Sequence record: PZ386953.1 | Strand: one strand, 5' to 3' | DNA: 64,000 nucleotides | DNA from: a phage | Shown: positions 7,393 to 63,546 of the stretch, in pieces | Position numbering within the stretch: the stretch's first letter is position 1 | Layout of the letters: every line of letters begins with the position of its first letter | The notes under the pieces: generated by a model | Database searches by the model: none | What the model saw: only the letters and a program-made list of their open reading frames with translations | Told to the model about the DNA's origin: nothing | Position numbers and translations under genes: made by a program

Positions 7393-8369
7393 TGTCTGAA
7401 AAAACGATTACTATTAAAGAGAAGGGGATTGCCCTGTGCCATAAGGCGCAAGGCTATAGCGCTAACAACAGACCTGTATCTCTTTTGATGAAGAGTGATC
7501 TTAAGCCTGAGCAGTTAACAGACGATATTGTTAAGGCACTTCGCCAAGTTACTGTGGAGCTTAGTTTTGAAGAATACCTGCGTCGTTTCTTCGATATGTG
7601 GTATGATGATGCTAAAGCACTTGCACACATGCTTGGTTTTGAGATTGAAGAGGAGGCTTGGGCTAAAGAGCATCCTGATTGGGAATGGGCGCAAGCTGAC
7701 GCAGAGTCTTGTATTGCATGGCTGGAAGAGCGTTGTGATAACGTGACCATTCATAAGGCTGCAAAAGAAGGCAAGCAGCTTAGTGTGGTAGATCAGTACA
7801 GCCTGTTAAAAACACAACAGATTTTTGAACAAGTAACCGCTGATCTCTTCGATAAAGAAGGGAACCTGATCAAGGCGGTACAGGAACCTGCTGAGGTGGA
7901 TAAAACTACCGAGGTGGATGATGTTGCAAAATCCGCAAATACCGAGGAGAATCCGGTGGACGTAACCAAAACTAAAGAGTATCTGGATCTGCTGAAGCAA
8001 GTAGAAGAGCTGAAAGCAACCCAGAGTAAAGCTGAAGAAATCATCAAGGCCCAGGTTGAAGTTGAAAAAGCTAAAATGCTGACTAAGGCTCAAGCTTTAA
8101 GCTTTGTTGGTGAAGAAGATCACGCAACCCTGGTTGACTTCATGCTGGAAAAAGCTAACGAACCTATCGTAGCTATGCTGGAGAAAGCTCAAGCAAAAAT
8201 TGAAGAGCTGGAAGCAGAGGTGCATAAAACTAAAGAAGAGTTTGCCACCACTGAACATGGTAATGATGGCGAACCTGTTGTGGATGATATTGCAAAATCC
8301 GCAGAAGAAATTCTTGCTGAAAACGTTGCAAAAGCACTTGCTCGTGCACGTGCAGAATCTAACAAATAA
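7392..8369 (+). CDS. capsid scaffolding protein
   Basis: 325-aa highly acidic, helical/coiled-coil-rich protein between protease-position gene and capsid gene; start overlaps upstream stop. Confidence 0.55.
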   Translation: MSEKTITIKEKGIALCHKAQGYSANNRPVSLLMKSDLKPEQLTDDIVKALRQVTVELSFEEYLRRFFDMWYDDAKALAHMLGFEIEEEAWAKEHPDWEWAQADAESCIAWLEERCDNVTIHKAAKEGKQLSVVDQYSLLKTQQIFEQVTADLFDKEGNLIKAVQEPAEVDKTTEVDDVAKSANTEENPVDVTKTKEYLDLLKQVEELKATQSKAEEIIKAQVEVEKAKMLTKAQALSFVGEEDHATLVDFMLEKANEPIVAMLEKAQAKIEELEAEVHKTKEEFATTEHGNDGEPVVDDIAKSAEEILAENVAKALARARAESNK

Positions 8370-8389
8370 GACATTAACGGGGGAAATAA

Positions 8390-8779
8390 ATGATTACCGC
8401 TCAATATTCTGATATCGTGCTCGGCAAAGTTGATTCTAGCGATGCTGGCTACAATTTTAAAGAGATGGAAATTACACTGACAGAGCACCATCATGCTGGC
8501 ACGGTTGTGACCAAAGATGGTAGCATTGCCAATCAGGACGGTTCAGACGCCTATGGCGTTCTGGTGGATCGTGCTTTAATTCCGGACGCTGCTGGTAAAG
8601 TACATATCGCTGAACCTCTTGGCACAAAGAAATATAAACTGGTTGTTGCTGTGCGTGGTGTTACTTTTGCCAAGGATAAATTGCTGGCAACTGGTGGTGC
8701 TAAAGCAGAACAGGCTGTGTTAGACAAGCTTGAGGCTCTGGGTAACAAGGTTCAGGTCCAGACTCTTGGTGAAGAGTAA
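8390..8779 (+). CDS. putative head decoration or auxiliary capsid protein
   Basis: 129-aa ORF between scaffold and major capsid gene, the lambda D-like position. Confidence 0.4.
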   Translation: MITAQYSDIVLGKVDSSDAGYNFKEMEITLTEHHHAGTVVTKDGSIANQDGSDAYGVLVDRALIPDAAGKVHIAEPLGTKKYKLVVAVRGVTFAKDKLLATGGAKAEQAVLDKLEALGNKVQVQTLGEE

Positions 8780-8827
8780 GCCCTAAATTGTTCGGGAAAA
8801 TATTTAAGTTTTACTTTGGAGAAATAA

Positions 8828-9835
8828 ATGATTACTCGTAAAGATGAATTTGGCATTGTTGATTTAGGTGCTACTCTGGACCTTGTTCCGCGCCAATTCC
8901 GACTGATTACTGGTATGGATCTGTTCGAAACCCGTCTCGGCACCTCAACGATTGCTCAGATCGAGCGTGTTGATGAAGTTGTAACCGACATTCCGGCACG
9001 CCGTCGTGGTGGTGAGCGTAATTACGTTGGTAGTGAACGTGCTCAGGTTAAAAACCTGAACATCCCGTTCTTCCCTCTGGACAAAGGCATCACCGCAGCA
9101 GATGTTCAGAACTTCCGTCGTTACTTCACCCCTGATGCTCCGAAAACTGTTCAGGACGTAGTAACCCGCGTTGTTCGCCGTATCCGTGTTTCTCATGAAG
9201 CACTGCGTGAGAAAGCGCTGTTCCAGGCTATTCTGGGTAAATCCTATGCACCAGGTGACACCACCTGTCAGTATGATTACTACACTCTGTGGGGTGTGTC
9301 CCAGAAATCTGTAGAAATTGATCCAGCGAAAGCAGATCAGGACCCGATGGAAGTTCTGGAAGACGCTCGTCTGCATATCGCCCTGCAAGCTGGTGACAAC
9401 GCTGCTGGCTACCGTATCGTGGCTCTGTGCTCTCCTGAGTTCTTCAGTGCAATCACTCACCACCCGCTGGTAGAACTGGCATACACCTACTACGGCTCTG
9501 CTCAGGAACCTCTGCGTCGTCGTCTGGGTGCTGGCGGTCAGGACAGCGTTTATCGTGTGTTCGAACATAAAGGTATCACCTTTATCGAAGATATCTCTGG
9601 CAATATCCCTAAGAAAGAAGCTCGCATTCTGCCGATGGGTATTGATCAGATGTTCCAGCTGCACTTTGCTCCGGCAGATGATGTTAACGAAGCAAATACC
9701 CCAGCACAGGAACTGTATATGTGGTATAAACACTCTGCATACCTGCGTGAAGAGAAGATTGAATCTGAAACTTCCATGCTGGCAGTTAACACCCGTCCAG
9801 AGCTGGTTGTTAAAGCAACTCTGAAAGGTGAATAA
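8828..9835 (+). CDS. major capsid protein
   Basis: 335-aa ORF at the lambda E-like position, GGAG SD, followed by a strong terminator. Confidence 0.75.
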   Translation: MITRKDEFGIVDLGATLDLVPRQFRLITGMDLFETRLGTSTIAQIERVDEVVTDIPARRRGGERNYVGSERAQVKNLNIPFFPLDKGITAADVQNFRRYFTPDAPKTVQDVVTRVVRRIRVSHEALREKALFQAILGKSYAPGDTTCQYDYYTLWGVSQKSVEIDPAKADQDPMEVLEDARLHIALQAGDNAAGYRIVALCSPEFFSAITHHPLVELAYTYYGSAQEPLRRRLGAGGQDSVYRVFEHKGITFIEDISGNIPKKEARILPMGIDQMFQLHFAPADDVNEANTPAQELYMWYKHSAYLREEKIESETSMLAVNTRPELVVKATLKGE

Positions 9836-53524: not shown

Positions 53525-53788
53525 TCAGAAACCCTCTAAAAAGCTCTTGTAGAAAACAATCTCAGTATCCACACCAGTCACAATCTTGTCGTTCCTGATT
53601 TCATCGGTAAGATAGGTGTCAAAACGCAGAACCTGTGTGGTGTTGTCACACATCCACTCAGCTGTGACCATTGCGAAAATCTTAGCATCTTCATTATCTG
53701 GTGTGAATGTTACCACCTCACCGCACTTAAACTTTTCGATAGGCTGAGTGTTAGCTTTCGGTTCTGCGATAGTGATTTTTGTGGTCAT
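53525..53788 (-). CDS. small protein, tandem paralogue C (87 aa)
   Basis: CGEVVTF and VTGVDTEIVF motifs parallel paralogues A/B. Confidence 0.5.
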   Translation of the reverse strand: MTTKITIAEPKANTQPIEKFKCGEVVTFTPDNEDAKIFAMVTAEWMCDNTTQVLRFDTYLTDEIRNDKIVTGVDTEIVFYKSFLEGF

Positions 53789-54051
53789 TATTCTCCTCCT
53801 TCTTTTGAATAGCTTGTCTCTCCAAGGATGGTAATTTTGGTGTCAAGCTCTGTAACTTTCATGTTTGGCGGCAGATCGTACAACTCATTATTTTCTAAAT
53901 CGAACCCCCACACACAATGTTCTCCTGTTTTGACAATCATAACTATGTTTTGAATGCCGTCTCCGTCGCAACTTACCACGGTCCCACACGGAAAACTGTC
54001 TGCACGCTTTTTGTTCTTCACCTTAGAATTGAATACAATGCTGGTAGCCAT
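53788..54051 (-). CDS. small protein, tandem paralogue B (87 aa)
   Basis: MAT start, GTVV, FDL, VTELD, ILGE motifs shared with paralogue A; start overlaps A's stop by 1 nt. Confidence 0.5.
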   Translation of the reverse strand: MATSIVFNSKVKNKKRADSFPCGTVVSCDGDGIQNIVMIVKTGEHCVWGFDLENNELYDLPPNMKVTELDTKITILGETSYSKEGGE

Positions 54052-54314
54052 TATTGTTCCTCCACCATAACTTCGCCAAGAATTTCTATGCAGGCATCCA
54101 TTTCTGTAACAACCAAACTGTGAGGCAGTTCTACAAACACCTTTCTGAACAGGTCAAATACCCCAACATATATGTTTGCAGGATGTGATTTTACAACAAG
54201 TGCTGTATTCACATCCCCAAGTTCATCAACAAACATCACCACAGTGCCTGGAGCTACTGAGGACAGATACTTCTTAGTTTTACGGTTTGATGCAAATTTT
54301 AACTCTGTTGCCAT
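54051..54314 (-). CDS. small protein, tandem paralogue A (87 aa)
   Basis: Strong AGAGGAGG SD; first of four coupled paralogous genes. Confidence 0.55.
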   Translation of the reverse strand: MATELKFASNRKTKKYLSSVAPGTVVMFVDELGDVNTALVVKSHPANIYVGVFDLFRKVFVELPHSLVVTEMDACIEILGEVMVEEQ

Positions 54315-54329
54315 AAATAACCTCCTCTC

Positions 54330-55811
54330 TTACTTAGCGTACTCGATTAATTCCACAGTTTTCCCAAAGCTCGGGATATAATTTTTATTATACCCCTCAG
54401 TGAGGACCCATAGAGTATCGTACTTTTTCCACTTGTTGTCAACAACCTTTTGTTCAAAGTTATGCTCAAAGTATAGGTCGGTCAGGACGATGACATCTTT
54501 TGCATTAGGTATGTTGGCATCCAGATACTCGAACACGCAAGCAGCTGTTGTGCCCCATGTTGAGTGGACCTCATAGTTGACCATCTCGTCTATGTTGCCG
54601 CGAGTGTATACTTTAACCTCTCCAACCTCAGTTGACCAACAGAACATTGTAACCTTAAACTCTTTATACAGATTGCACAATCCGGTGATTTCATTGAACA
54701 TTTTCTTTAAAGTTCTTTGAGAGATCGAGCCAGAAACGTCTAAAGCCACCACAATATCTATAGTGTTTTCCGGATTACGACCAGGAACAATAACGTGCTG
54801 GTTCTTGTTTATAGCCCCAACTTTTCGCATTGTGCTGGTCAAAGACCCAGATCGGCGACCAGGTTTTCTGTAGGTCAGTTCGGCCTTTCTTTTAGACAAC
54901 ATACGTTGCTTAATGATGTCTATATAGTTGATTACAGGCTTACCTCTGTTCTTGACAAACTCACGCACCGCCTCAGGGCAACGGCCTCCGGACGCTTGCA
55001 TTGCTGCCTCCAGCATATCACCAGAGTCCTGCATGGCCTGATCTTTATCAGATTGGCTGATTACAGGTTGTGGCTGATCATACCCCATAGCCTTTCCAAG
55101 ATTATCACTGGTGCCACCGTTCCCACTCATGTGATCATCGGTTTGTCGCTTATCACTTTGAGAGTTCTCACCTTTACCGTTCTTACTTTTACCGTTATTC
55201 TGATCTCTTTGCTTATCAAGAACTGCATAAACGTTCTCAGCAATCCATCCATGAAACTTCATGTCGCAGTAGCAGCTGGCTAAGAAGCCAAAAGGCTTAC
55301 CTTTCATGAACGTAGTGCTTTTCCCCTTCGGGAAGAAAACACAAGGAGGTTTGCTAAAGTCAACCACAAGGCCTGTGTTGATAACGTGATCACAAGCAAT
55401 ATTGAACAGTTCCGGCTCAAAGCTTTTACCACGGACTAGGTGATCACAGATAATATGCCCCACCTCATGTGACAGAAGGAAGGCCACCTCTTTCACAGAT
55501 TTTGGGGAATAGAAAACTTCAGCCATCTCAAACTGCTCGTCAGTTAGAGAAGCCTTAAGAATAGCCTTGCGTTCATCAGCCAATCCCATAATGAACTCAG
55601 GACTGTAATAGATGCGTTTATGGTCGGTTGCCATGGTGGAGCACCATGTGTGGTTTTCTACGAACTGCAACCCTGACAGTAGTGTGCCATAAAACGGCAA
55701 CTTTTCAAGGAGATACATACGTGCAGCCTGCAACATTCTCAGGGCATCATCTTTCTGCGAGGCAATGATTTCTGAACTTCTGCTATCCATTAAAACTCCA
55801 GGAGGGGCCAT
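54330..55811 (-). CDS. metallopeptidase-domain plus VWA-domain protein
   Basis: HExxH-type motif LLSHEVGHIICDH in N-terminal half; MIDAS-like VVALDVSGSIS in C-terminal half; 493 aa. Confidence 0.7.
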   Translation of the reverse strand: MAPPGVLMDSRSSEIIASQKDDALRMLQAARMYLLEKLPFYGTLLSGLQFVENHTWCSTMATDHKRIYYSPEFIMGLADERKAILKASLTDEQFEMAEVFYSPKSVKEVAFLLSHEVGHIICDHLVRGKSFEPELFNIACDHVINTGLVVDFSKPPCVFFPKGKSTTFMKGKPFGFLASCYCDMKFHGWIAENVYAVLDKQRDQNNGKSKNGKGENSQSDKRQTDDHMSGNGGTSDNLGKAMGYDQPQPVISQSDKDQAMQDSGDMLEAAMQASGGRCPEAVREFVKNRGKPVINYIDIIKQRMLSKRKAELTYRKPGRRSGSLTSTMRKVGAINKNQHVIVPGRNPENTIDIVVALDVSGSISQRTLKKMFNEITGLCNLYKEFKVTMFCWSTEVGEVKVYTRGNIDEMVNYEVHSTWGTTAACVFEYLDANIPNAKDVIVLTDLYFEHNFEQKVVDNKWKKYDTLWVLTEGYNKNYIPSFGKTVELIEYAK

Positions 55812-55823
55812 TGGCCCCTGTCA

Positions 55824-56864
55824 TTATTTAACGTGTTTGAAAATACCTGCCAACTCGGTCATTGTCATGCGGGTGGTCTTCATAAGATCTGTCATAGCTT
55901 TCTCCATAATTGGAGATACTACCATAAAGTTTCCTTTAGTGAAACCTTTATTCCAGTCGGTCACCAACAGGGGTTTAAGTCCAGCTCCAAGACGTTCACC
56001 AGTTAAAGCACAGCATTTGCGAATATACGAACTCTTAAATTGGCTGAACGACAGATCAACTTTCATACCTACATCGTAGAACGTTTGACAATAGAAAGTG
56101 TAAGCTTTGGCAATCTCAACATCATCAGGTAGTGCAGGAACCTCTTCTGTAAGCCCCTCTTCGACCTCCTGAGTCTCTTTTTCCTCTTCATGCACCTGTT
56201 GCGTCATTTCTTCAATCTCTTCTGTGATAGGCTCGTTTACAATGTCGGAAATGTGCTTCTTGGGTGCACGATAAGTAACTTTAGACATCGGTAGCATATC
56301 TTCCTCCTCTTCTTCGTCAAAGAGTGCTAGTTTATCCTCTTCCGTTCCATATTGCAAGATGAAATCTTCAAAAGTATAATCACCTTTCAATTTCTCCATA
56401 CGCTCTTCGCTCAGGTGGAGCATCATCTGCTGGACAATTTTTCGATCAGTTTCGTCTTTAATCAAGACTGCAGTCTTTTTATCTACCAGACAGTCCTTTA
56501 GAGAGTTGCATCTCAATCCCACCACACAACAGTTATCAACCGCATAAGGACCTTCATCATCTATCCGCTCCAGGGATGGGTAGAAAGGATTCCCCAGCCC
56601 GTTTTCATCTGTGTGCATGTCAAAAGGTATAAGGGTATAGTCGCATACTCCATCTCCTAAAAGTTTTTTACCAAATAGGAGGTATTCTTCCCATGACAGG
56701 TCGAACTCTATATCTCGTTTCCGTGCGTTATTCTGTTTGCGTCTATATTTTTTGAGCAAGCGCTCTAACTCTTCTGGTGTATAATATTTTTCAAGATTCA
56801 TGAGTCGTCTCTCGTGCTCTGTAAGTGAAGAAATCGTATCAATTGTCTCAACAGATGTCAACAT
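55824..56864 (-). CDS. protein with two tandem degenerate HNH/EndoVII-like domains and acidic linker
   Basis: N-terminal IEFDLSWEEY...CDYT...VDNCCVVGLRCNSLK and C-terminal VDLSFSQFKSSY...CCALT... are mutually similar; start taken at ATG 56864 (track uses TTG 56867). Confidence 0.5.
   Translation of the reverse strand: MLTSVETIDTISSLTEHERRLMNLEKYYTPEELERLLKKYRRKQNNARKRDIEFDLSWEEYLLFGKKLLGDGVCDYTLIPFDMHTDENGLGNPFYPSLERIDDEGPYAVDNCCVVGLRCNSLKDCLVDKKTAVLIKDETDRKIVQQMMLHLSEERMEKLKGDYTFEDFILQYGTEEDKLALFDEEEEEDMLPMSKVTYRAPKKHISDIVNEPITEEIEEMTQQVHEEEKETQEVEEGLTEEVPALPDDVEIAKAYTFYCQTFYDVGMKVDLSFSQFKSSYIRKCCALTGERLGAGLKPLLVTDWNKGFTKGNFMVVSPIMEKAMTDLMKTTRMTMTELAGIFKHVK
56265..56293 (-). repeat. 29-nt inverted-repeat arm 1
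   Basis: Reverse complement equals TACCGATGTCTAAAGTTACTTATCGTGCA, identical to 58127..58155; encodes internal LPMSKVTYRA preceded by GAGGAGGAAG. Confidence 0.85.
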
Positions 56865-56875
56865 CAAAAACGTGT

Positions 56876-56904
56876 TGACTTTACTCTAACTCCACAATAT
56901 AGTG
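56876..56904 (+). promoter_or_regulatory. sigma70-like promoter TTGACT-17-TATAGT for rightward operon
   Basis: -35 TTGACT 56876-56881, 17-nt spacer, -10 TATAGT 56899-56904, in the 76-nt divergent intergenic region. Confidence 0.5.
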
Positions 56905-56943
56905 CACCCATTCGAAAGAAAACTAACATAGGAGCACTTACTT

Positions 56944-57843
56944 ATGGCAAATCTTAACAGTTTTAGTACGCGGTGGAAACAGGACATAACAACCAATCTT
57001 TCAGCTGGGGACATCCTTTCTGCAATTTACGAGGCTTTAGATGATAAAGCTACTTCAAAAGCGGTTTGTACCAACCCATTAATTCCTATAGTGATGAAGG
57101 TTATTGAGCGTAGATTGGTATCTGGGTCTGATAAGTGGACATATTTAGATAATGAAGGACACACCTATTCCAATGGGTATGTCGATATAAAAGTAGAATA
57201 CGCGGTATCATACCGCCGGAGCGGTTCTGTAACTTTCAACTTCTCTGGAGGTTTTCGATCTCTGGCTACCTCACCTTTTGTTTCCTCGGAGGAGAAGTAT
57301 GAGCTGCCATTTCTTTGGATGATGGCTAACGCGACAGGAAAAACCCCCGTTAGCATCCGAGTAAAATACAACTACAACGGATCTAGTAAGATCTATGCCG
57401 AAAGTGTCTCAGCAAGTTTTTATTTTGTGATGGGGGATGGAATCCTCAAACATATAAAGATGTGCGATATGCATGATGTTATAAATGAAGTGACTGATAA
57501 GAATGTTCTAGTGAAAGACCTCAACAATTTTTATACACCTGGAGACTATTACGTCAGCCGTCCACTGTGCATCTTTAATGCCGCACACCCTCTAGGTGAG
57601 TATTTGATCGCCAATAGCGATATTGCCAATAACCGCTTCGAGGTAGCAAGAGTTCAGAATGAGGTATTGACATCTTGCAAGAGCGGTGATAAGTTTACCG
57701 AAGAAGAGATGGGTGTTTTAGAAATGATGGGATATAAGTGTAGCCTTTGGGTAGATGAGGTGTTTAATGATTGCATCTATGGACAGGATATTTACCCATT
57801 AAAGAAGTATACTGATACAAGTTTAATTTATGCGAGGGTTTGA
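56944..57843 (+). CDS. hypothetical protein (299 aa)
   Basis: First gene of rightward operon, AGGAG SD. Confidence 0.5.
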   Translation: MANLNSFSTRWKQDITTNLSAGDILSAIYEALDDKATSKAVCTNPLIPIVMKVIERRLVSGSDKWTYLDNEGHTYSNGYVDIKVEYAVSYRRSGSVTFNFSGGFRSLATSPFVSSEEKYELPFLWMMANATGKTPVSIRVKYNYNGSSKIYAESVSASFYFVMGDGILKHIKMCDMHDVINEVTDKNVLVKDLNNFYTPGDYYVSRPLCIFNAAHPLGEYLIANSDIANNRFEVARVQNEVLTSCKSGDKFTEEEMGVLEMMGYKCSLWVDEVFNDCIYGQDIYPLKKYTDTSLIYARV

Positions 57844-57845
57844 CT

Positions 57846-58118
57846 ATGATGAAGGCATGTGGTAATGTATATTACGTCGGTGAACATGTTCAGGCAGACA
57901 GTGTGTGGAAATCTATTAAGTCCACCACTGACGATGCCTTTCTGAGTGGACTATGTTTCCCCAATCCGGGAGACATCCTCCCTCATCCTGGAGATTTTGT
58001 TGTCAACAAGATGGACGGTTATACCGTGTGCCTGATGGTTGAAAAAATCTTTTTAGACACTAGACACAATCACCGTCTTGTGTTAAAATTTCAAGAATGT
58101 AAAATGACAATTGCCTAA
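57846..58118 (+). CDS. hypothetical protein (about 90 aa)
   Basis: ATG 57846 after GAGGG; track ORF starts at in-frame TTG 57840. Confidence 0.4.
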   Translation: MMKACGNVYYVGEHVQADSVWKSIKSTTDDAFLSGLCFPNPGDILPHPGDFVVNKMDGYTVCLMVEKIFLDTRHNHRLVLKFQECKMTIA

Positions 58119-58126
58119 GGAGACCT

Positions 58127-58155
58127 TACCGATGTCTAAAGTTACTTATCGTGCA
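58127..58155 (+). repeat. 29-nt inverted-repeat arm 2
   Basis: TACCGATGTCTAAAGTTACTTATCGTGCA covering the start codon and first 8 codons of ORF 58132. Confidence 0.85.
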
Positions 58156-58488
58156 GCTATTTACTGCAATGAACACCCAATCAATAATGATGGTCACTGC
58201 CTTTTTAAAGAAAATCAATTGGGCTGTATTGTCCTCCCCGATGAAGGGGAAGGTTATCTGATTGCATTGACAGGGTTTGAACCTGAGGCTCTGGAAGCCA
58301 ATCTGGACTACCTGGTAGAAGAGGGTGCTGCAGACCTGGTTGCCAATGGCCTCTCCATAAGCCTTGACGAAGTAGAGCGCTTCATGGGCAATTACCGTGT
58401 AGTGCGTGAGTTTACTATCGAGGTGGAAACTCCCGAGTGGGGTAGCCATGAAACTAATGCCGAAGAAAAAGAAGAGGAGGTAGAATAA
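58132..58488 (+). CDS. hypothetical acidic protein (118 aa)
   Basis: ATG 58132 with AAGGAG SD at 58117-58122; track ORF starts at upstream in-frame TTG 58111. Confidence 0.5.
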   Translation: MSKVTYRAAIYCNEHPINNDGHCLFKENQLGCIVLPDEGEGYLIALTGFEPEALEANLDYLVEEGAADLVANGLSISLDEVERFMGNYRVVREFTIEVETPEWGSHETNAEEKEEEVE

Positions 58489-58745
58489 TGAAAGTGCAGA
58501 TCTTGACTAATGCTGAGAAGATGTTTATTGAAGATACACCTTTTGAAGCTGGTGAGCTACAGTTCGTTTATTTTGTTGACTTAGATAAGGTGTTTCCTGC
58601 ACTGAATCTAGGTTTGGATGAAGTTCCTCATAAGGTTTTGTGCCGAGTTGTTCGTGCCTTAGCGGCAGAGGGGGAGTTCCACACCCTTCAAGATGTCCAG
58701 ACCTACGGGTATCTTGAACTACAACGAGAAGAAGAGGTGGACTGA
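58488..58745 (+). CDS. hypothetical protein (85 aa)
   Basis: Start overlaps upstream stop, GAGGAGG SD. Confidence 0.45.
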   Translation: MKVQILTNAEKMFIEDTPFEAGELQFVYFVDLDKVFPALNLGLDEVPHKVLCRVVRALAAEGEFHTLQDVQTYGYLELQREEEVD

Positions 58746-58747
58746 TA

Positions 58748-59128
58748 ATGGCTCAGTGGAAGACAACAGTTGACCTTCATGATCAGTGGTTAGGACGCAT
58801 CACTGAAGACGGGAAGCTAGTGGAGTGGGACAATAAGCATGTTAGCGAGTTGGCAAGTATTGTGGCTGGCAAGTTACGCTCCAAGTTCCCTGAACAACTG
58901 GATCCTGATAGTTCAAAGTTCGATCCTGAGTTAGAGGATGTTGTATACTACTTCGACACCGTTGATGACTACGACGCGTGGTTTGCAGCACGGGAGCTTT
59001 ACCCACAAGGCTCTGCTATGCGCCAGATGGAAGAAGATTATCCTCCGTGTGAGCAATTCAATAGTGCAATGACTTGCCTCTATGATTGGGCAGATAAGAA
59101 CCTTGTCTGGATTCGGACTGCATTTTAG
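58748..59128 (+). CDS. hypothetical protein (126 aa)
   Basis: ORF 2 nt after the upstream stop. Confidence 0.45.
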   Translation: MAQWKTTVDLHDQWLGRITEDGKLVEWDNKHVSELASIVAGKLRSKFPEQLDPDSSKFDPELEDVVYYFDTVDDYDAWFAARELYPQGSAMRQMEEDYPPCEQFNSAMTCLYDWADKNLVWIRTAF

Positions 59129-59172
59129 TGGGCAGGAATGGCGGCAAGGATGCTGCTTAAGGAGTAGTAGAG

Positions 59173-59442
59173 ATGTTATACCAGCAATATGAACTTCGTG
59201 CAGAAAAAGAGTTAAATTTTGACAAAGATATTCACAGATATTATTATGGGAAAGTTAGAGGGCAAGCAAGAAAGTGTACTCCAACACTCTTTTATGCCAG
59301 CAGACGACTAGCGCCAGAAGAGGCAACAGCAGAAAGGGTTGCGTACAACTGGAGAGTCACGTATGATATTGACAGATTCGATGTGATATCTGTTTTGGAA
59401 AACTTTGAAAACACTTACACACAAGTAGAGGACTTTTACTAA
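59173..59442 (+). CDS. hypothetical protein (89 aa)
   Basis: AAGGAG SD. Confidence 0.45.
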   Translation: MLYQQYELRAEKELNFDKDIHRYYYGKVRGQARKCTPTLFYASRRLAPEEATAERVAYNWRVTYDIDRFDVISVLENFENTYTQVEDFY

Positions 59443-60626
59443 TGTCAAGAAACGTATTCGAAAGTGGTCAAATCACTGTCCGTGAGTTGCCAGCTATTAT
59501 TCAGTTTGCCCAACGTCATAGCCGATCTGTCCTAATTTTGGGACCAATGGGTGTGGGTAAAAGCCAGGTGATGAAGCAGATCGCTGATAATATGTTCGGT
59601 GAGCGAGATGACAACCTTGTTGACGTGCGACTGTCAGATAAAGATCCTGCCGACTTATCTGGGCTACCTATCCCTGTAGAAGCGGATGGAACTACACGTA
59701 CAGTGTTTGCAATTCCAGAATTTTGGCCTGCGAATCCTGACTGGAGCGGAATTATCTTTCTGGATGAGCTCACTCATGCAGATAACTACCTGCAAAAGGT
59801 TGCAATGCAAATTATGCTTGACCACAAGTGCGGCACCTATGCATTCCCTAAGGGCTCTGTTTTTGTGGCTGCGGGTAACCGTTCTACAGATGGTGCGGTT
59901 CTTTCGGCGCTCGAAGCCCCTCTGGCTAACCGTTTTATCATTGTAGAGGTTACAAGCAATGCAGAGGTGTTTATTGAGGACTACGCATTCCTCAACGGGG
60001 TTCACTCCTCTGTAATTGGGTATCTGAAAAGAGTTCCATCAGCTATTGATAATTATGAGGCTATGGCTGAGATTAATTGTCCATCTTTTGCCACACCACG
60101 ATCTTGGGTTGCTGCATCTGACATCTTGCACGATTTTGACAGCGGTATTATTTCTGACGCTATGGCCCGTGTTCTTCTGCAAGGTGCTATTGGTCACACT
60201 GCAGCGGTAGAGATCTGGACTTACCACACCAAGAAACGTAATTTACCGGAAATCGGTCGGATTATGGCAGGTGGCTGCAAAGAATATGTAGGTCCTAAGC
60301 AGCCAGACATTTTGTGGATTCTTGGATCTGAAGGTTGTATCGCTATTCGCAATATGATGGAAAATGCAAGTATCTCAGACGAAGATCTTGTCAGCTGCGT
60401 GGCAAACTTCCTCGATTTCCTTTGGGAAAACTTCAAGGACGAGAACCGAGATTTTGTATTCTCAGTCTTTATGGCGATGATGAAACCTAATGCCTTAGGA
60501 AATGCCTTGCTTATCGGTAAAGGGCGTGACAAGATTGTTGCTCAGCTGATCAAAGCATACCCAAACCTGATGAAGATTGTAAAAGAGTTTGGTGAAGAGT
60601 TTAGCGCCATTTTGGCTAAAGCTTAA
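59442..60626 (+). CDS. MoxR/CbbQ-type AAA+ ATPase
   Basis: Walker A LILGPMGVGKSQ, Walker B IIFLDELTHA, sensor-1-like VAAGN, Arg-finger-like ANRF; 394 aa. Confidence 0.75.
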   Translation: MSRNVFESGQITVRELPAIIQFAQRHSRSVLILGPMGVGKSQVMKQIADNMFGERDDNLVDVRLSDKDPADLSGLPIPVEADGTTRTVFAIPEFWPANPDWSGIIFLDELTHADNYLQKVAMQIMLDHKCGTYAFPKGSVFVAAGNRSTDGAVLSALEAPLANRFIIVEVTSNAEVFIEDYAFLNGVHSSVIGYLKRVPSAIDNYEAMAEINCPSFATPRSWVAASDILHDFDSGIISDAMARVLLQGAIGHTAAVEIWTYHTKKRNLPEIGRIMAGGCKEYVGPKQPDILWILGSEGCIAIRNMMENASISDEDLVSCVANFLDFLWENFKDENRDFVFSVFMAMMKPNALGNALLIGKGRDKIVAQLIKAYPNLMKIVKEFGEEFSAILAKA

Positions 60627-60636
60627 GGGGGGTTGT

Positions 60637-61017
60637 ATGGCTAAAGTAGGTAAGCGGGGAAACTACCTGGTGGTATTGACCGAGGAGCCGGAGAAGGAGT
60701 ACGAATGCAGCTCCACTTGCGTGATCGATATCCGAGAAAAAGATGTAGATGAAGTCTGGTTTAAAATATTGGACGCTTGCGATAGCAGTGATTATTTCTT
60801 CATTTATGTCAACGATAAGGCTGGATTCTTCCATGACGACGGAGAGTTGCCGTATGAAATCTATGAACTTGTAGAGGCTTGCCATCGTGGAGATGCGGAG
60901 TTGTTTGGCCTACGGCTGAAAAGCGGTAAATTCTTCTATCAAGATGAGTGCATGAATCTTCATAACTTTGTAGAGGGAACTTGCAACGATGGAGAGATTT
61001 TGGCACACTACGATTAA
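60637..61017 (+). CDS. hypothetical protein (126 aa)
   Basis: ATG 60637 with AAGGGGGG SD; track ORF starts at upstream in-frame ATG 60589 overlapping the ATPase gene. Confidence 0.45.
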   Translation: MAKVGKRGNYLVVLTEEPEKEYECSSTCVIDIREKDVDEVWFKILDACDSSDYFFIYVNDKAGFFHDDGELPYEIYELVEACHRGDAELFGLRLKSGKFFYQDECMNLHNFVEGTCNDGEILAHYD

Positions 61018-61028
61018 TTTCTAAGACC

Positions 61029-61057
61029 TCCCCCGCTTCGGCGGGGATTTTCTATTT
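61029..61057 (+). terminator. intrinsic terminator
   Basis: CCCCGC-TTCG-GCGGGG hairpin followed by ATTTTCTATTT. Confidence 0.6.
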
Positions 61058-61066
61058 GGAGTCATT

Positions 61067-61567
61067 GTGAAAATTAAGATCTTTGCTATTATTTTGAGCG
61101 CACTTTTATCGCTGCCTGTTGTTGCAGCACCAAAACAAAAAGTATATCATACTTGCAAGCCATCAGATACTAAGGAAAACATTCTGGCATGCAATATCTA
61201 CAGGGAAGCTAGAGGAGATGGCACGATGGGTATGCTGGCATCTGGGTTTGCCACACTAAACAGGAAATCCCACCCTAAATACCCAGACACTATAAGAAAG
61301 ATTGTCTACCAACCTAACCAGTTTTCGTGGACAAACCACGGCAAAACTTTTAAGGTGACAGAAAAAGATTCATGGGATCACGCTAAAAGTCTTGCAAAGA
61401 TGCTTCTAAAGGTCTATAATAACAACCATGTTGCATACATGGCTATGGACATAACAGGTGGAGCAACACACTACCATACAACCAAAGTACGACCGAAATG
61501 GGCAAAAAAGATGCAGAGGACAGCTCAATTCGGGAGCCATATCTACTACAAGGAGCGCAATAAATGA
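61067..61567 (+). CDS. secreted SleB-like cell-wall hydrolase (candidate endolysin)
   Basis: N-terminal signal-peptide-like MKIKIFAIILSALLSLPVVAAP; motifs NIYREARGDG, ASGFATLNRK, VYQPNQFSW, GSHIYY resemble SleB-family hydrolases (from memory); GTG start with GGAG SD. Confidence 0.7.
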   Translation: MKIKIFAIILSALLSLPVVAAPKQKVYHTCKPSDTKENILACNIYREARGDGTMGMLASGFATLNRKSHPKYPDTIRKIVYQPNQFSWTNHGKTFKVTEKDSWDHAKSLAKMLLKVYNNNHVAYMAMDITGGATHYHTTKVRPKWAKKMQRTAQFGSHIYYKERNK

Positions 61568-63546
61568 TTGTAAACAGTAATGAAACTAAAGCAGTGCTGA
61601 CCGGAAATATGGAGGTCACCAGGGGCTCAATTTCTCTGAACAAAGAGACTTTTGGGCTAATCATTAAAGGGATTTACGAAGATAAGGTGCTGGCAAGCTG
61701 CCGTGAACCAATCTTCAATGCTGTGGACTCCCATGTTGAGTCTGGACGGGGTGATGTACCGATCATCATTCACTCTCCTACAGACCTTGAACCATACTTC
61801 TTTGTGCAGGACGTTGGATTGGGCATGTCAGAAGAGATGGTCCGCAACACTTTCATGAATCTCGGGGAGTCAACCAAGCGCAACAGCAACGCTCTGGTAG
61901 GTAATAAAGGTGTTGGTTCAAAGGCTCCGTTCAGTATGGTGGACACTTTCGATGTTATCAGTGTGCACAATGGTGTTGAAAGCACATATCTATTGTTCTT
62001 GGATCAGGGTATCCCAAACGTTACCAAGATCCGTGAGCGGAAGACTGAAGAGCACAACGGGGTAAAAGTTCAGTTCCATGTTAAGAAAGAGCATGTCCTG
62101 AAATATCGCACTGCTATTGCATCGTGCTTACGCTATGCGAAGTTTCCGTTCATCGTCACCGATCCTATGACCAGTAAGATGTTAGAAGGTGACAAGGTTG
62201 AGGCACAGTATCATTACGAGAAGGATGGCTGGAAAATGACCATCCTGAAAGGTTATACCAGTTCTGATGAGAGCCGTGTTGTGATGGGTCACCAACCTTA
62301 CCGCTCCAAGTTCCTGGAGACATTGACCGATTACCCTGCAATCTGCGTGGAAATTCCTATTGGGGATTGCAATATTAACCCTGGGCGTGAATGGACCATA
62401 GAGGGCCATGACGACGGTGGATTCCAGGATCGCCTGGAGGCCTTTGTCAAAGAAGGTATACGTCTTCGCGGGGCAGAAGTTATTGCAGAACTGGAGACGG
62501 CAAAAACCTCCGCAGAAGCACGTGAAATGATGAAGAATAGTGGAGTGTTCGGACACATCTTCGGCAAAAACTTTATGTGGAACCGTTGGGAAGAAACAGG
62601 GCTTGGCGACTTAGGCGATTGTGAAATTTTCGCTGGCGGCTTAAATAAAGGCCGCATAGGCTATGCTCGTTACGGAAAGTCGGAGTTCTTACGAGGTGTA
62701 TACCTTGTATTTAACGACGGAGATGGTAAATATAACCGAAATAAGTGTAACTACTTAAGCGAAATCACCGGACGCAACGTTTTCTATTGCCGGAACACGG
62801 ATCTGGTGAAAGAGTTTAAAGAGGCGGCACACCATCCGTTCTTTGCAGATACTGTCAAATTGTTATCAGAGCTCCCTCGCCGACCTGCGAAGAAAGGTGA
62901 AACAAAAACTCATTACGAGCCAGGTTATTGGGTTAAAAAGCTTGAGAAGGATGGTTACTTCCGTCGTGAACGTATTACTAAGGCAGAGTTCAAGAAGATT
63001 AAGCACTGCATTCCTTATGAGGGTGATATCCAACGTGGAAGTTGTTGGCTGGGACAGCTGAGTAACATCTACCAGCAAAATTATGACCGTGTGCGTGCTG
63101 CACTCCAGATTCCTGAAGGTGAAGATCTGTACTTGGTATCAGAATCTCGTCTGCTTTGGACTGATCCTGATTGCCAGTATGTTACAGAGAAGAATGTGGA
63201 ACACTTGTTGAAAGAGGATGCTTGGAAATTCTTACTGACTCGCGCAGCAAATGAAACTTCATATGACAGCTTGTATAGACAATTAGGGAAAATTATCCCC
63301 ATGCAGGATTTTGGAAATTATCGGCCACATTTCCACAAGTGGGAAGGTAACACCGCGTGGAAGCACAGTGAGCTAAATCATCGTGCCAAAATCTTAATCG
63401 CCAACCGGGTTAAGTGCGGGAAGGCCTATATTGCAAGATTGGAAAAGAAATATCCACTTTTGAAGCATGTGGGCTTGAAATATTGGGACACCCCTGCTAT
63501 GATTGAATACCGTGAGCTGATCGATACAAAGAATAACATCAAATAA
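61564..63546 (+). CDS. GHKL-family ATPase (Hsp90/MORC-like Bergerat fold) with large uncharacterised C-terminal region
   Basis: N-box-like IFNAVDS, G1 box VQDVGLGMS, G2 box GNKGVGSKAPF in first ~130 aa; 660 aa; AAGGAG SD. Confidence 0.55.
   Translation: MIVNSNETKAVLTGNMEVTRGSISLNKETFGLIIKGIYEDKVLASCREPIFNAVDSHVESGRGDVPIIIHSPTDLEPYFFVQDVGLGMSEEMVRNTFMNLGESTKRNSNALVGNKGVGSKAPFSMVDTFDVISVHNGVESTYLLFLDQGIPNVTKIRERKTEEHNGVKVQFHVKKEHVLKYRTAIASCLRYAKFPFIVTDPMTSKMLEGDKVEAQYHYEKDGWKMTILKGYTSSDESRVVMGHQPYRSKFLETLTDYPAICVEIPIGDCNINPGREWTIEGHDDGGFQDRLEAFVKEGIRLRGAEVIAELETAKTSAEAREMMKNSGVFGHIFGKNFMWNRWEETGLGDLGDCEIFAGGLNKGRIGYARYGKSEFLRGVYLVFNDGDGKYNRNKCNYLSEITGRNVFYCRNTDLVKEFKEAAHHPFFADTVKLLSELPRRPAKKGETKTHYEPGYWVKKLEKDGYFRRERITKAEFKKIKHCIPYEGDIQRGSCWLGQLSNIYQQNYDRVRAALQIPEGEDLYLVSESRLLWTDPDCQYVTEKNVEHLLKEDAWKFLLTRAANETSYDSLYRQLGKIIPMQDFGNYRPHFHKWEGNTAWKHSELNHRAKILIANRVKCGKAYIARLEKKYPLLKHVGLKYWDTPAMIEYRELIDTKNNIK

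Follow-up and report, generated by a model that had tools for sequence, protein, structure and literature searches.

Group 2.2 jumbo phages encode a MoxR AAA+ ATPase and a metallopeptidase-vWA protein that have been described as a 'chaperone–co-chaperone' pair (Iyer et al. 2021, Viruses 13:63, PMC7824862), and the N4 gp24/gp25-like genes of the Schitoviridae belong to the same family. In both groups, the two genes share a strand and lie side by side or almost so. Here we describe the corresponding pair in a 64,000-nucleotide stretch of phage DNA (sequence record PZ386953.1, hereafter the window). As in jumbo phages, a MoxR-type ATPase is matched with a vWA protein bearing an N-terminal HExxH peptidase domain (the VWA-peptidase), but the two genes lie on opposite strands across a bidirectional promoter region. 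We consider it probable that one inversion common to the genera Vequintavirus, Seunavirus and Mydovirus, together with a retained partnership of the two proteins and a role in early or middle infection, accounts for the locus as a whole.

Homologous units also occur in bacteria. The AAA_5 + DUF2201 units of the type seen in Sulfurivermis fontis (AP018724) are recovered by hidden Markov models (HMMs) of the phage ATPase (~1e-70) and VWA (~1e-116) families, and their DUF2201 proteins share the conserved HExxH and metal-ion-dependent adhesion site (MIDAS) motifs of the window protein; unlike the window's, they form tight co-oriented pairs, and both products are shorter (≈347 and ≈415 amino acids, aa). 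The characterised MoxR–VWA systems, CbbQ–CbbO (Rubisco activase), NorQ–NorD (nitric-oxide reductase maturation), RavA–ViaA and midasin/Rea1, show a sequence identity of only 10–20%; their adaptors have no fused HExxH peptidase domain, and no counterpart of their clients (metalloenzymes, pre-ribosomes) is known here. Earlier work has reported the rV5 genes with their MoxR label and bidirectional promoters (2013), as well as the pairing of MoxR with a peptidase-vWA protein in phages (2021); the literature that we searched contained no report that one inversion splits the pair in three Vequintavirinae genera and that sister genera have it unsplit. The system itself is known; what is new at this locus is its organisation.

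The two proteins and their usual gene order

The window derives from a Vequintavirus, an rV5-like Escherichia coli myophage, and is 99.8% identical to phage Murica over positions 54000–61000. This 7-kb region recurs at 90% identity or more in 122 phage records, 115 of which cover at least 80% of it in one piece; the presence of the same block in 122 independent genomes rules out an assembly artefact as the source of the split. Both open reading frames (ORFs) of the initial annotation are present as given, one at 54330..55811 (minus strand, 493 aa) and one at 59442..60626 (plus strand, 394 aa), and their start codons are separated by 3,631 bp, in line with the opposite strands and the distance of about 3.6 kb reported there. 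A search with family HMMs found a single copy of each family in the window.

Homology, invariant motifs and fold matches agree in supporting the assignment of the 394-aa protein to the MoxR/AAA_5-type AAA+ ATPases; its rV5 counterpart, gp4, has been labelled 'MoxR – ATPase' since 2013, and gp12, the counterpart of the VWA-peptidase, 'DUF2201_N' (PMC3606486 Table S3). For the window ATPase itself, no AAA family rises above the Pfam gathering threshold (AAA_5 scores 16.8 bits vs 22), and NCBIfam and PDB sequence matches are at the P-loop level only. It matches the phage ATPase family phrog_1297 at 3.7e-110, and phmmer aligns 85% of the query, at E≈1e-43 and 33–36% identity, with ~360-aa AAA_3 + AAA_5 proteins, some of them bpMoxR; among 28 aligned relatives, 13 match AAA_5 and AAA_3 and five match bpMoxR. 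Walker A (GPMGVGKS, residues 34–41), Walker B (IIFLDE, 104–109), sensor 1 (N146), the arginine finger (R164, in LANRF) and sensor 2 (R220) are all recognisable, with G34, G37, G39, K40, S41, D108, E109, N146, R164 and R220 invariant in the 28 sequences. In an AlphaFold 2 (AF2) model (predicted local distance difference test score, pLDDT, 85), β-hairpins at 75–90 and 129–134 occupy the helix-2 and pre-sensor-1 insert positions, and by fold the protein matches CbbQ, dynein, NorQ, MoxR and midasin best. At the C terminus, ~110 additional residues form a helical region that is absent from the ~360-aa relatives and is found as well in the ATPases of two related phages with unsplit genes, CR3 and A5-4 (≈400–410 aa).

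The partner's HExxH and MIDAS motifs, noted in the initial annotation, proved to be complete, and Pfam, alignment and fold comparison together identify a DUF2201_N putative metallopeptidase domain followed by a DUF2201 VWA domain. In the numbering of the 493-aa ORF, which we use throughout, PF13203 (DUF2201_N, 'putative metallopeptidase') covers residues 96–321 (99.1 bits vs a cut-off of 23.2) and PF09967 (DUF2201, 'VWA-like') residues 353–488 (44 bits vs 26.4), with a disordered linker at ~207–234 joining the peptidase and VWA domains. HExxH lies at residues 115–119 of the N-terminal, zincin-like domain, and an alignment of 32 phage and bacterial homologues shows H115, E116, H119 and H124 (HExxH..H) and D141 to be invariant. 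The complete MIDAS of the C-terminal domain (D358-x-S360-x-S362, T421, D445) is invariant in the same alignment, and structure comparison assigns this domain a VWA fold. The N-terminal DUF2201_N domain is a putative HExxH peptidase of zincin-like character. Translation probably begins at the ATG at 55790, yielding 486 aa, as indicated by a GGAG at 55796–55799, the Murica annotation and a 486-aa database cluster.

Database labels for the VWA-peptidase family are widely in error. They include 'HNH endonuclease' (phrog_1314 and many records), presumably owing to the HExxH motif, as well as 'putative anti-sigma factor', 'DNA repair ATPase' and 'protease', and a small gene adjoining the VWA-peptidase gene in phage KpS11 is labelled 'tail protein'. 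The rV5 record DQ832317 divides the VWA-peptidase between two overlapping products, gp12 (441 aa, 7756–9081) and gp13 (81 aa, 8972–9217), a division that implies a frameshift close to the VWA domain's end. The window and Murica both have an uninterrupted ORF, and the frameshift could be a sequencing error of this 2006-era record or a real disruption.

The canonical order, from which the window departs, places the ATPase gene directly 5′ of the VWA-peptidase gene on the same strand. The premise of the initial annotation that the pair is normally adjacent and co-oriented held for 69 of 71 informative viral loci, for bacteria, for N4-like phages and for CR3. Our IMG/VR census comprised 80 loci anchored on ATPase relatives; in 69 of them, most of which come from one environmental clade and hence are not independent, the VWA-peptidase gene lies 47–338 bp 3′ of the ATPase gene on the same strand, eight were cut by a contig end, one had room for a partner and none was detected there, and two were split, these being an rV5-like and a Mydovirus-like contig. 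In Sulfurivermis fontis and another gammaproteobacterial lineage, a co-oriented AAA_5 gene stands ~100–240 bp 5′ of a DUF2201 gene, and in the 155-kb environmental phage that encodes the closest ATPase homologue outside the Vequintavirinae, a DUF2201 gene follows directly. N4-like phages carry the gp24-like/gp25-like pair with at most one ORF between, beside helicase and DNA polymerase genes (e.g. LIT1), and PA5oct carries the pair co-oriented with three small genes and a homing endonuclease gene between. (The gp numbers of the PA5oct paper do not match the RefSeq tags.) Of 50,697 phage records, 813 gave a tblastn match to the ATPase and 620 to the VWA-peptidase, in groups that include N4-like, rV5-like and jumbo phages (GAP32, 121Q, K64-1, PA5oct).

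Gene order within the Vequintavirinae

Comparison with related phages, which the initial annotation had proposed, revealed both the split and the unsplit state within the Vequintavirinae. In Certrevirus CR3, the ATPase gene (CR3_112) is followed after a 68-bp gap by the VWA gene (CR3_113), and Septuagintavirus A5-4 has co-oriented ATPase and VWA genes with only an HNH homing endonuclease gene between them. Mydovirus KpS11 and Seunavirus 4MG have the layout of the window, with the VWA gene, a small gene and a gene for an Srd-like protein on the minus strand, then a divergent region and a plus-strand operon that includes the ATPase gene. Identity to the window proteins follows the same division, at 50–53% (ATPase) and 43–46% (VWA-peptidase) in the split genera and 33–37% in the unsplit ones (CR3 and A5-4: ATPase 35–36%, VWA-peptidase 33–37%). 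Judged by the identity of either protein, the split genera are most closely related to one another, and a published phylogeny places Septuagintavirus beside Certrevirus.

An all-against-all comparison of ORFs identified six anchors common to 4MG and CR3, namely the VWA, phosphohydrolase, ATPase and phosphatase genes, an unnamed gene X, and SleB. With three blocks separated by slashes, their order in CR3 is SleB− X− phosphatase− … / phosphohydrolase+ … ATPase+ / VWA+ …, and in 4MG … VWA− / phosphohydrolase+ … ATPase+ / … phosphatase+ X+ SleB+. Inverting the central block alone, from phosphohydrolase to ATPase, interconverts the two orders, with breakpoints at the ATPase/VWA junction and in the divergent promoter region. 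The CR3 and A5-4 loci share the phosphohydrolase, phosphatase and SleB anchors with the split genomes, but SleB stands on the opposite arm from that in the window. At the ATPase end, the slot 3′ of the ATPase gene that rV5 gp3 fills in split genomes is the slot of the VWA gene in unsplit ones. At the VWA-side junction, the Srd-like gene is present in the split genera only; homologues occur in 4MG and KpS11, and none was seen in the 26-kb CR3 and A5-4 loci.

Because all outgroups examined have the genes co-oriented and a single event suffices, we take the split to be the derived state. A single inversion in the ancestor shared by Vequintavirus, Seunavirus and Mydovirus would have flipped the promoter-proximal block, from the first gene of the arm through the ATPase gene. 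The ATPase gene would then read rightwards towards SleB and rIIA, and on the leftward arm the VWA-peptidase gene would have come to stand second, after an Srd-like gene new to that position. The split itself is an inherited rearrangement, not a regulatory invention.

Two unrelated phages, A5-4 (L011 13868-14362) and PA5oct (L094 4029-5525), carry homing endonuclease genes between the ATPase gene and the VWA gene. With inversion in one case and homing endonucleases in others, the ATPase/VWA junction looks like a recurrent site of rearrangement and insertion.

Promoters, hairpins and neighbouring genes

The features of the locus, in window coordinates, and the promoter–hairpin cassettes discussed below are as follows.

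54330..55811, minus strand: metallopeptidase-VWA gene, rV5 gp12 / Murica gp12 (Pfam DUF2201_N + DUF2201)
55803..55819, minus strand: GC-rich palindromic hairpin AGGGGCC-AAT-GGCCCCT, between the Srd-like stop and the VWA-peptidase start
55824..56801, minus strand: putative Srd-like ('anti-sigma factor') gene, rV5 gp11, at the head of the leftward operon (PHROG matches)
56833..56903, both strands: predicted back-to-back σ70-like promoters in the divergent intergenic region (consensus scan)
56944–57843, plus strand: 299-aa gene of the rightward operon
57840–58118, 58111–58488, 58488–58745, 58748–59128 and 59173–59442, plus strand: five small genes
59442..60626, plus strand: MoxR/AAA_5-type AAA+ ATPase gene, rV5 gp4
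60637..61046, plus strand: 126-aa gene, rV5 gp3, then a terminator-like hairpin CCCCGCTTCGGCGGGG with a T-rich tail (61031–61046)
Cassette positions: L012 9920-9990 (minus), L009 5762-5814 (minus), L010 12482-12533 (plus); window 55803-55868 (minus)

The first gene of the leftward operon had been read as tandem-HNH-like, a description that finds no footing here: no Pfam family matches it at E≤0.01, and its two halves align only at E=3. The PHROG names 'HNH endonuclease' and 'endonuclease VII' attached to it are annotation names only. It matches phrog_3118 at 2.2e-112, phrog_4592 ('decoy of host sigma70') at 5.6e-15 over residues 12–152 and phrog_1400 ('Srd') at 4.5e-10 over residues 35–241, and rV5 gp11 was assigned to Srd by PSI-BLAST (PMC3606486). 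These similarities suggest that 55824–56801 encodes a putative Srd-like anti-sigma factor, and if the protein truly were an anti-σ70 decoy, it would shut off the promoters of both arms. Its central stretch is extremely acidic (EEEEED…EEIEE…EEKETQEVEE). The gene's most likely start codon is the ATG at 56801, giving 325 aa and a divergent intergenic region of 142 bp; the program-made ORF list runs the frame up to a TTG at 56867, overlapping the promoter.

Within the intergenic region, a consensus scan predicts a leftward promoter (TTGACA-17-TACGAT, 56861→56833) and a rightward one (TTGACT-17-TATAGT, 56875→56903), each with 10 of 12 consensus matches. The only palindrome there, a 23-nt element at 56857–56879 (GTCAACA-N9-TGTTGAC, with seven perfect pairs per arm, or eight counting G·T), consists of the −35 boxes of the two back-to-back promoters. 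It is probably the source of the inverted repeat of the initial annotation; repeat searches found no inverted repeat of the reported length of 29 nt. Bidirectional promoters between rV5 genes 10 and 11, σ70-like promoters genome-wide and a T4-late-like motif upstream of late genes 27–66 have been described, with proposed transcription units running 10→1→238→164 and 11→26 (Kropinski et al., PMC3606486). Both units of our locus are predicted to start at one promoter pair, and both to lie outside the late structural unit. A further, strong promoter-like site (TTGACA-17-TATTAT, 59219–59247, 11 of 12 matches) lies inside the 89-aa gene that precedes the ATPase gene.

In 4MG, KpS11 and CR3, the VWA gene is directly preceded by a predicted promoter–hairpin cassette of its own, in which a promoter of σ70 type, a hairpin (GGCCATC…GATGGCC) with its T-tract, a GGAG and the start codon follow one another; the hairpins are more stable than shuffled sequences (z = −2.8 to −5.5). 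In the window this cassette is reduced, with a degenerate promoter and a shorter hairpin that lacks the T-tract, occupies the 33-nt gap between the Srd-like stop and the VWA-peptidase start (55803–55819) and is annotated as a terminator in Murica. The window VWA gene is probably co-transcribed with the Srd-like gene, to judge from this layout. In unsplit CR3, the cassette stands between the adjacent ATPase and VWA genes, so the pair was probably transcriptionally separable before the inversion. Promoter–stem-loop cassettes (PeSL elements) are known from T4-type phages, and the VWA cassette resembles them. It also coincides with one inversion breakpoint, and we infer that such cassettes may have mediated the inversion.

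The initial annotation counted five small genes between the pair; all five are present, and a 299-aa gene stands there too, on the way from the promoter region to the ATPase gene. Among these six genes (56944–59442), only that at 58748–59128 has homologues in 4MG and KpS11. The last of them, an 89-aa gene (59173–59442), overlaps the ATPase start codon in an ATGA, which suggests translational coupling. PHROGs label this 89-aa gene 'ATPase' (phrog_13164) despite its having no ATPase features, and the label is probably annotation spill-over.

Further from the pair, two neighbouring 87-aa genes 3′ of the VWA-peptidase gene (53788–54051 and 54051–54314, minus strand) are paralogues (39% identity, E 6e-12), and a third 87-aa gene (53525–53788) shows no detectable similarity to them. 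An rIIA homologue (61564-63546, plus strand; HATPase_c_3; phrog_612, 1.8e-124) lies 3′ of the ATPase operon and SleB. Phage EdH4 is 99% identical to the window in the rIIA region, and knock-down of EdH4 rIIA or rIIB by CRISPR interference (CRISPRi) is reported to lower plating on E. coli expressing lambda RexAB (PMC11879866); in the CRISPRi-ART study, knock-downs in EdH4 and N4 were restricted to MCP (major capsid protein) and rII genes and were not genome-wide. GC and AT skew flip sign from ~50 kb to 57 kb and are positive again beyond, which corresponds to a minus-strand unit (rV5 genes 11–26) embedded between plus-strand units. Sixteen records, MG065635 C12 and MG065647 D# among them, bear the name 'Campylobacter phage' with Campylobacter jejuni as host and are at least 99% identical to positions 54000-61000; their host label looks doubtful, or the preparations mixed.

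Continued partnership and possible function

The initial annotation had named two outcomes that would undo its pairing of the proteins, membership of unrelated families and a lack of co-conservation. Neither was found, and both genes are present in every split genome examined (the window, Murica, KpS11, 4MG, L013 and L014) as well as in the 122-record block. The two proteins also diverge in parallel across genera, and the family HMM search found no alternative VWA or MoxR partner in the 64-kb window. Since both genes are retained, divergence is parallel, catalytic and metal-binding residues are invariant and no substitute partner is encoded in the window, the ATPase and the VWA-peptidase probably still work together.

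How they might do so can be sketched by homology to NorQ–NorD, CbbQ–CbbO and midasin. The ATPase would form a hexameric ring, the VWA domain would use its MIDAS to dock to the ATPase, to an acidic residue in a client protein or to both, and ATP hydrolysis would remodel the client for cleavage by the fused HExxH peptidase. As the initial annotation stated, a function of the pair in phages is not established, and the literature offers only a proposal. Genomic context suggests that the pair acts in early or middle infection: small genes, rIIA and σ70-type promoters surround it here, and in environmental loci L003–L005 it lies beside 5′-3′ exonuclease and thymidylate synthase genes.

Several observations count against the account of one inversion, lasting partnership and early or middle action. 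Structure comparison found no solved structural relative for the N-terminal peptidase domain. The region holds 32 promoter-like sites in the consensus scan vs 25.8 expected by chance, and the window hairpin (−13.4 kcal/mol) is not more stable than its shuffles (z = −0.7); the literature yielded no transcript data for this phage group, so that promoters and hairpin stand as predictions. The extent of the split clade is drawn from the Vequintavirinae genera compared here and is incomplete. Finally, the ATPase homologue of PA5oct is flagged in its record as identified by ESI-MS/MS (electrospray ionisation with tandem mass spectrometry), which is compatible with a role in virion assembly.

That role is the one proposed for the jumbo-phage pair, in virion assembly and processing, by analogy with MoxR–vWA tail assembly in Acidianus two-tailed virus (Iyer et al. 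2021, PMC7824862). Applied to our locus, the proposal makes the two proteins a late chaperone pair that also processes structural proteins, and besides the PA5oct detection it can draw on the general character of MoxR–VWA systems as assembly chaperones. The position of the pair argues otherwise, however: here, in N4-like phages and in environmental phages, it is housed in modules of the early, middle or replication kind rather than structural ones, and its promoters are of σ70 type, lacking the T4-late-like motif of rV5 late genes 27–66 (PMC3606486). Neither rV5 gp4 nor gp12 is marked as detected in virions by mass spectrometry (PMC3606486 Table S3), although a chaperone need not be packaged. 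On balance, we regard a late assembly role as rather unlikely.

A more specific version of an early role can be imagined, in which the pair is an ATP-driven, MIDAS-targeted protease acting on a host protein during takeover or counter-defence, the peptidase-VWA gene having been recruited to the immediate-early operon of the Srd-like gene. We hold this to be doubtful. If it were true, the split would show a system functioning in trans, with neither cis-adjacency nor translational coupling, and the family would gain its first function, in more than 600 sequenced phage genomes that include those with N4 gp24/gp25.

The initial annotation saw in the arrangement a sign of regulated or conditional assembly, that is, of divergent operons that let the phage express the two proteins at different times or doses. 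The genes do fall in different proposed transcription units (PMC3606486), with the VWA gene behind a putative anti-sigma gene and a hairpin, and the ATPase gene 2.5 kb from its promoter and possibly served by the internal site at 59219–59247. Yet both units are predicted to begin at the same back-to-back σ70-like promoter pair, and two genes behind one bidirectional promoter region are more simply expected to be co-expressed. In CR3, moreover, a predicted promoter and a terminator-like hairpin already part the adjacent genes, so that the uncoupling appears older than the split, which adds none, and one inversion inherited by three genera explains the arrangement fully. A regulatory purpose for the split is, in our judgement, quite unlikely.

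Nor does it seem at all likely that the inversion was followed by functional decoupling, with each protein kept for an independent role or another partner. Physical linkage has been lost, the small genes around each gene differ between genera, and the ATPase has a helical C-terminal extension that its ~360-aa relatives lack, all of which would fit such a history. The extension is present in the unsplit CR3 and A5-4 as well, however, and the absence of another VWA or MoxR gene from the window, the retention of both genes in all split genomes examined, their parallel divergence and the invariance of their motifs speak for a partnership that has persisted.

The reverse polarity, in which the Vequintavirinae started out with the split and an inversion brought the genes back together in Certrevirus and Septuagintavirus, is barely credible: an inversion is symmetric and gene order in the subfamily alone gives no direction, but ATPase precedes VWA on one strand in bacteria, N4-like phages, PA5oct, jumbo phages and 69 environmental loci, and re-making exactly that order by chance is unparsimonious. 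A defence-system reading was dropped after PADLOC gave no meaningful match for the ATPase, the VWA-peptidase, the Srd-like protein or the 299-aa gene product.

We thus return to a single, inherited inversion of a pair whose proteins probably remain partners. As such, the split is a modest evolutionary curiosity; it opens no new mechanism, and the window gives no particular handle on what the pair does. Of the uncharacterised two-protein systems of large lytic phages, the pair itself is among the more widespread, and its separation in three Vequintavirinae genera amounts to a natural experiment, indicating that tight adjacency and co-translation are not required for both genes to be retained.

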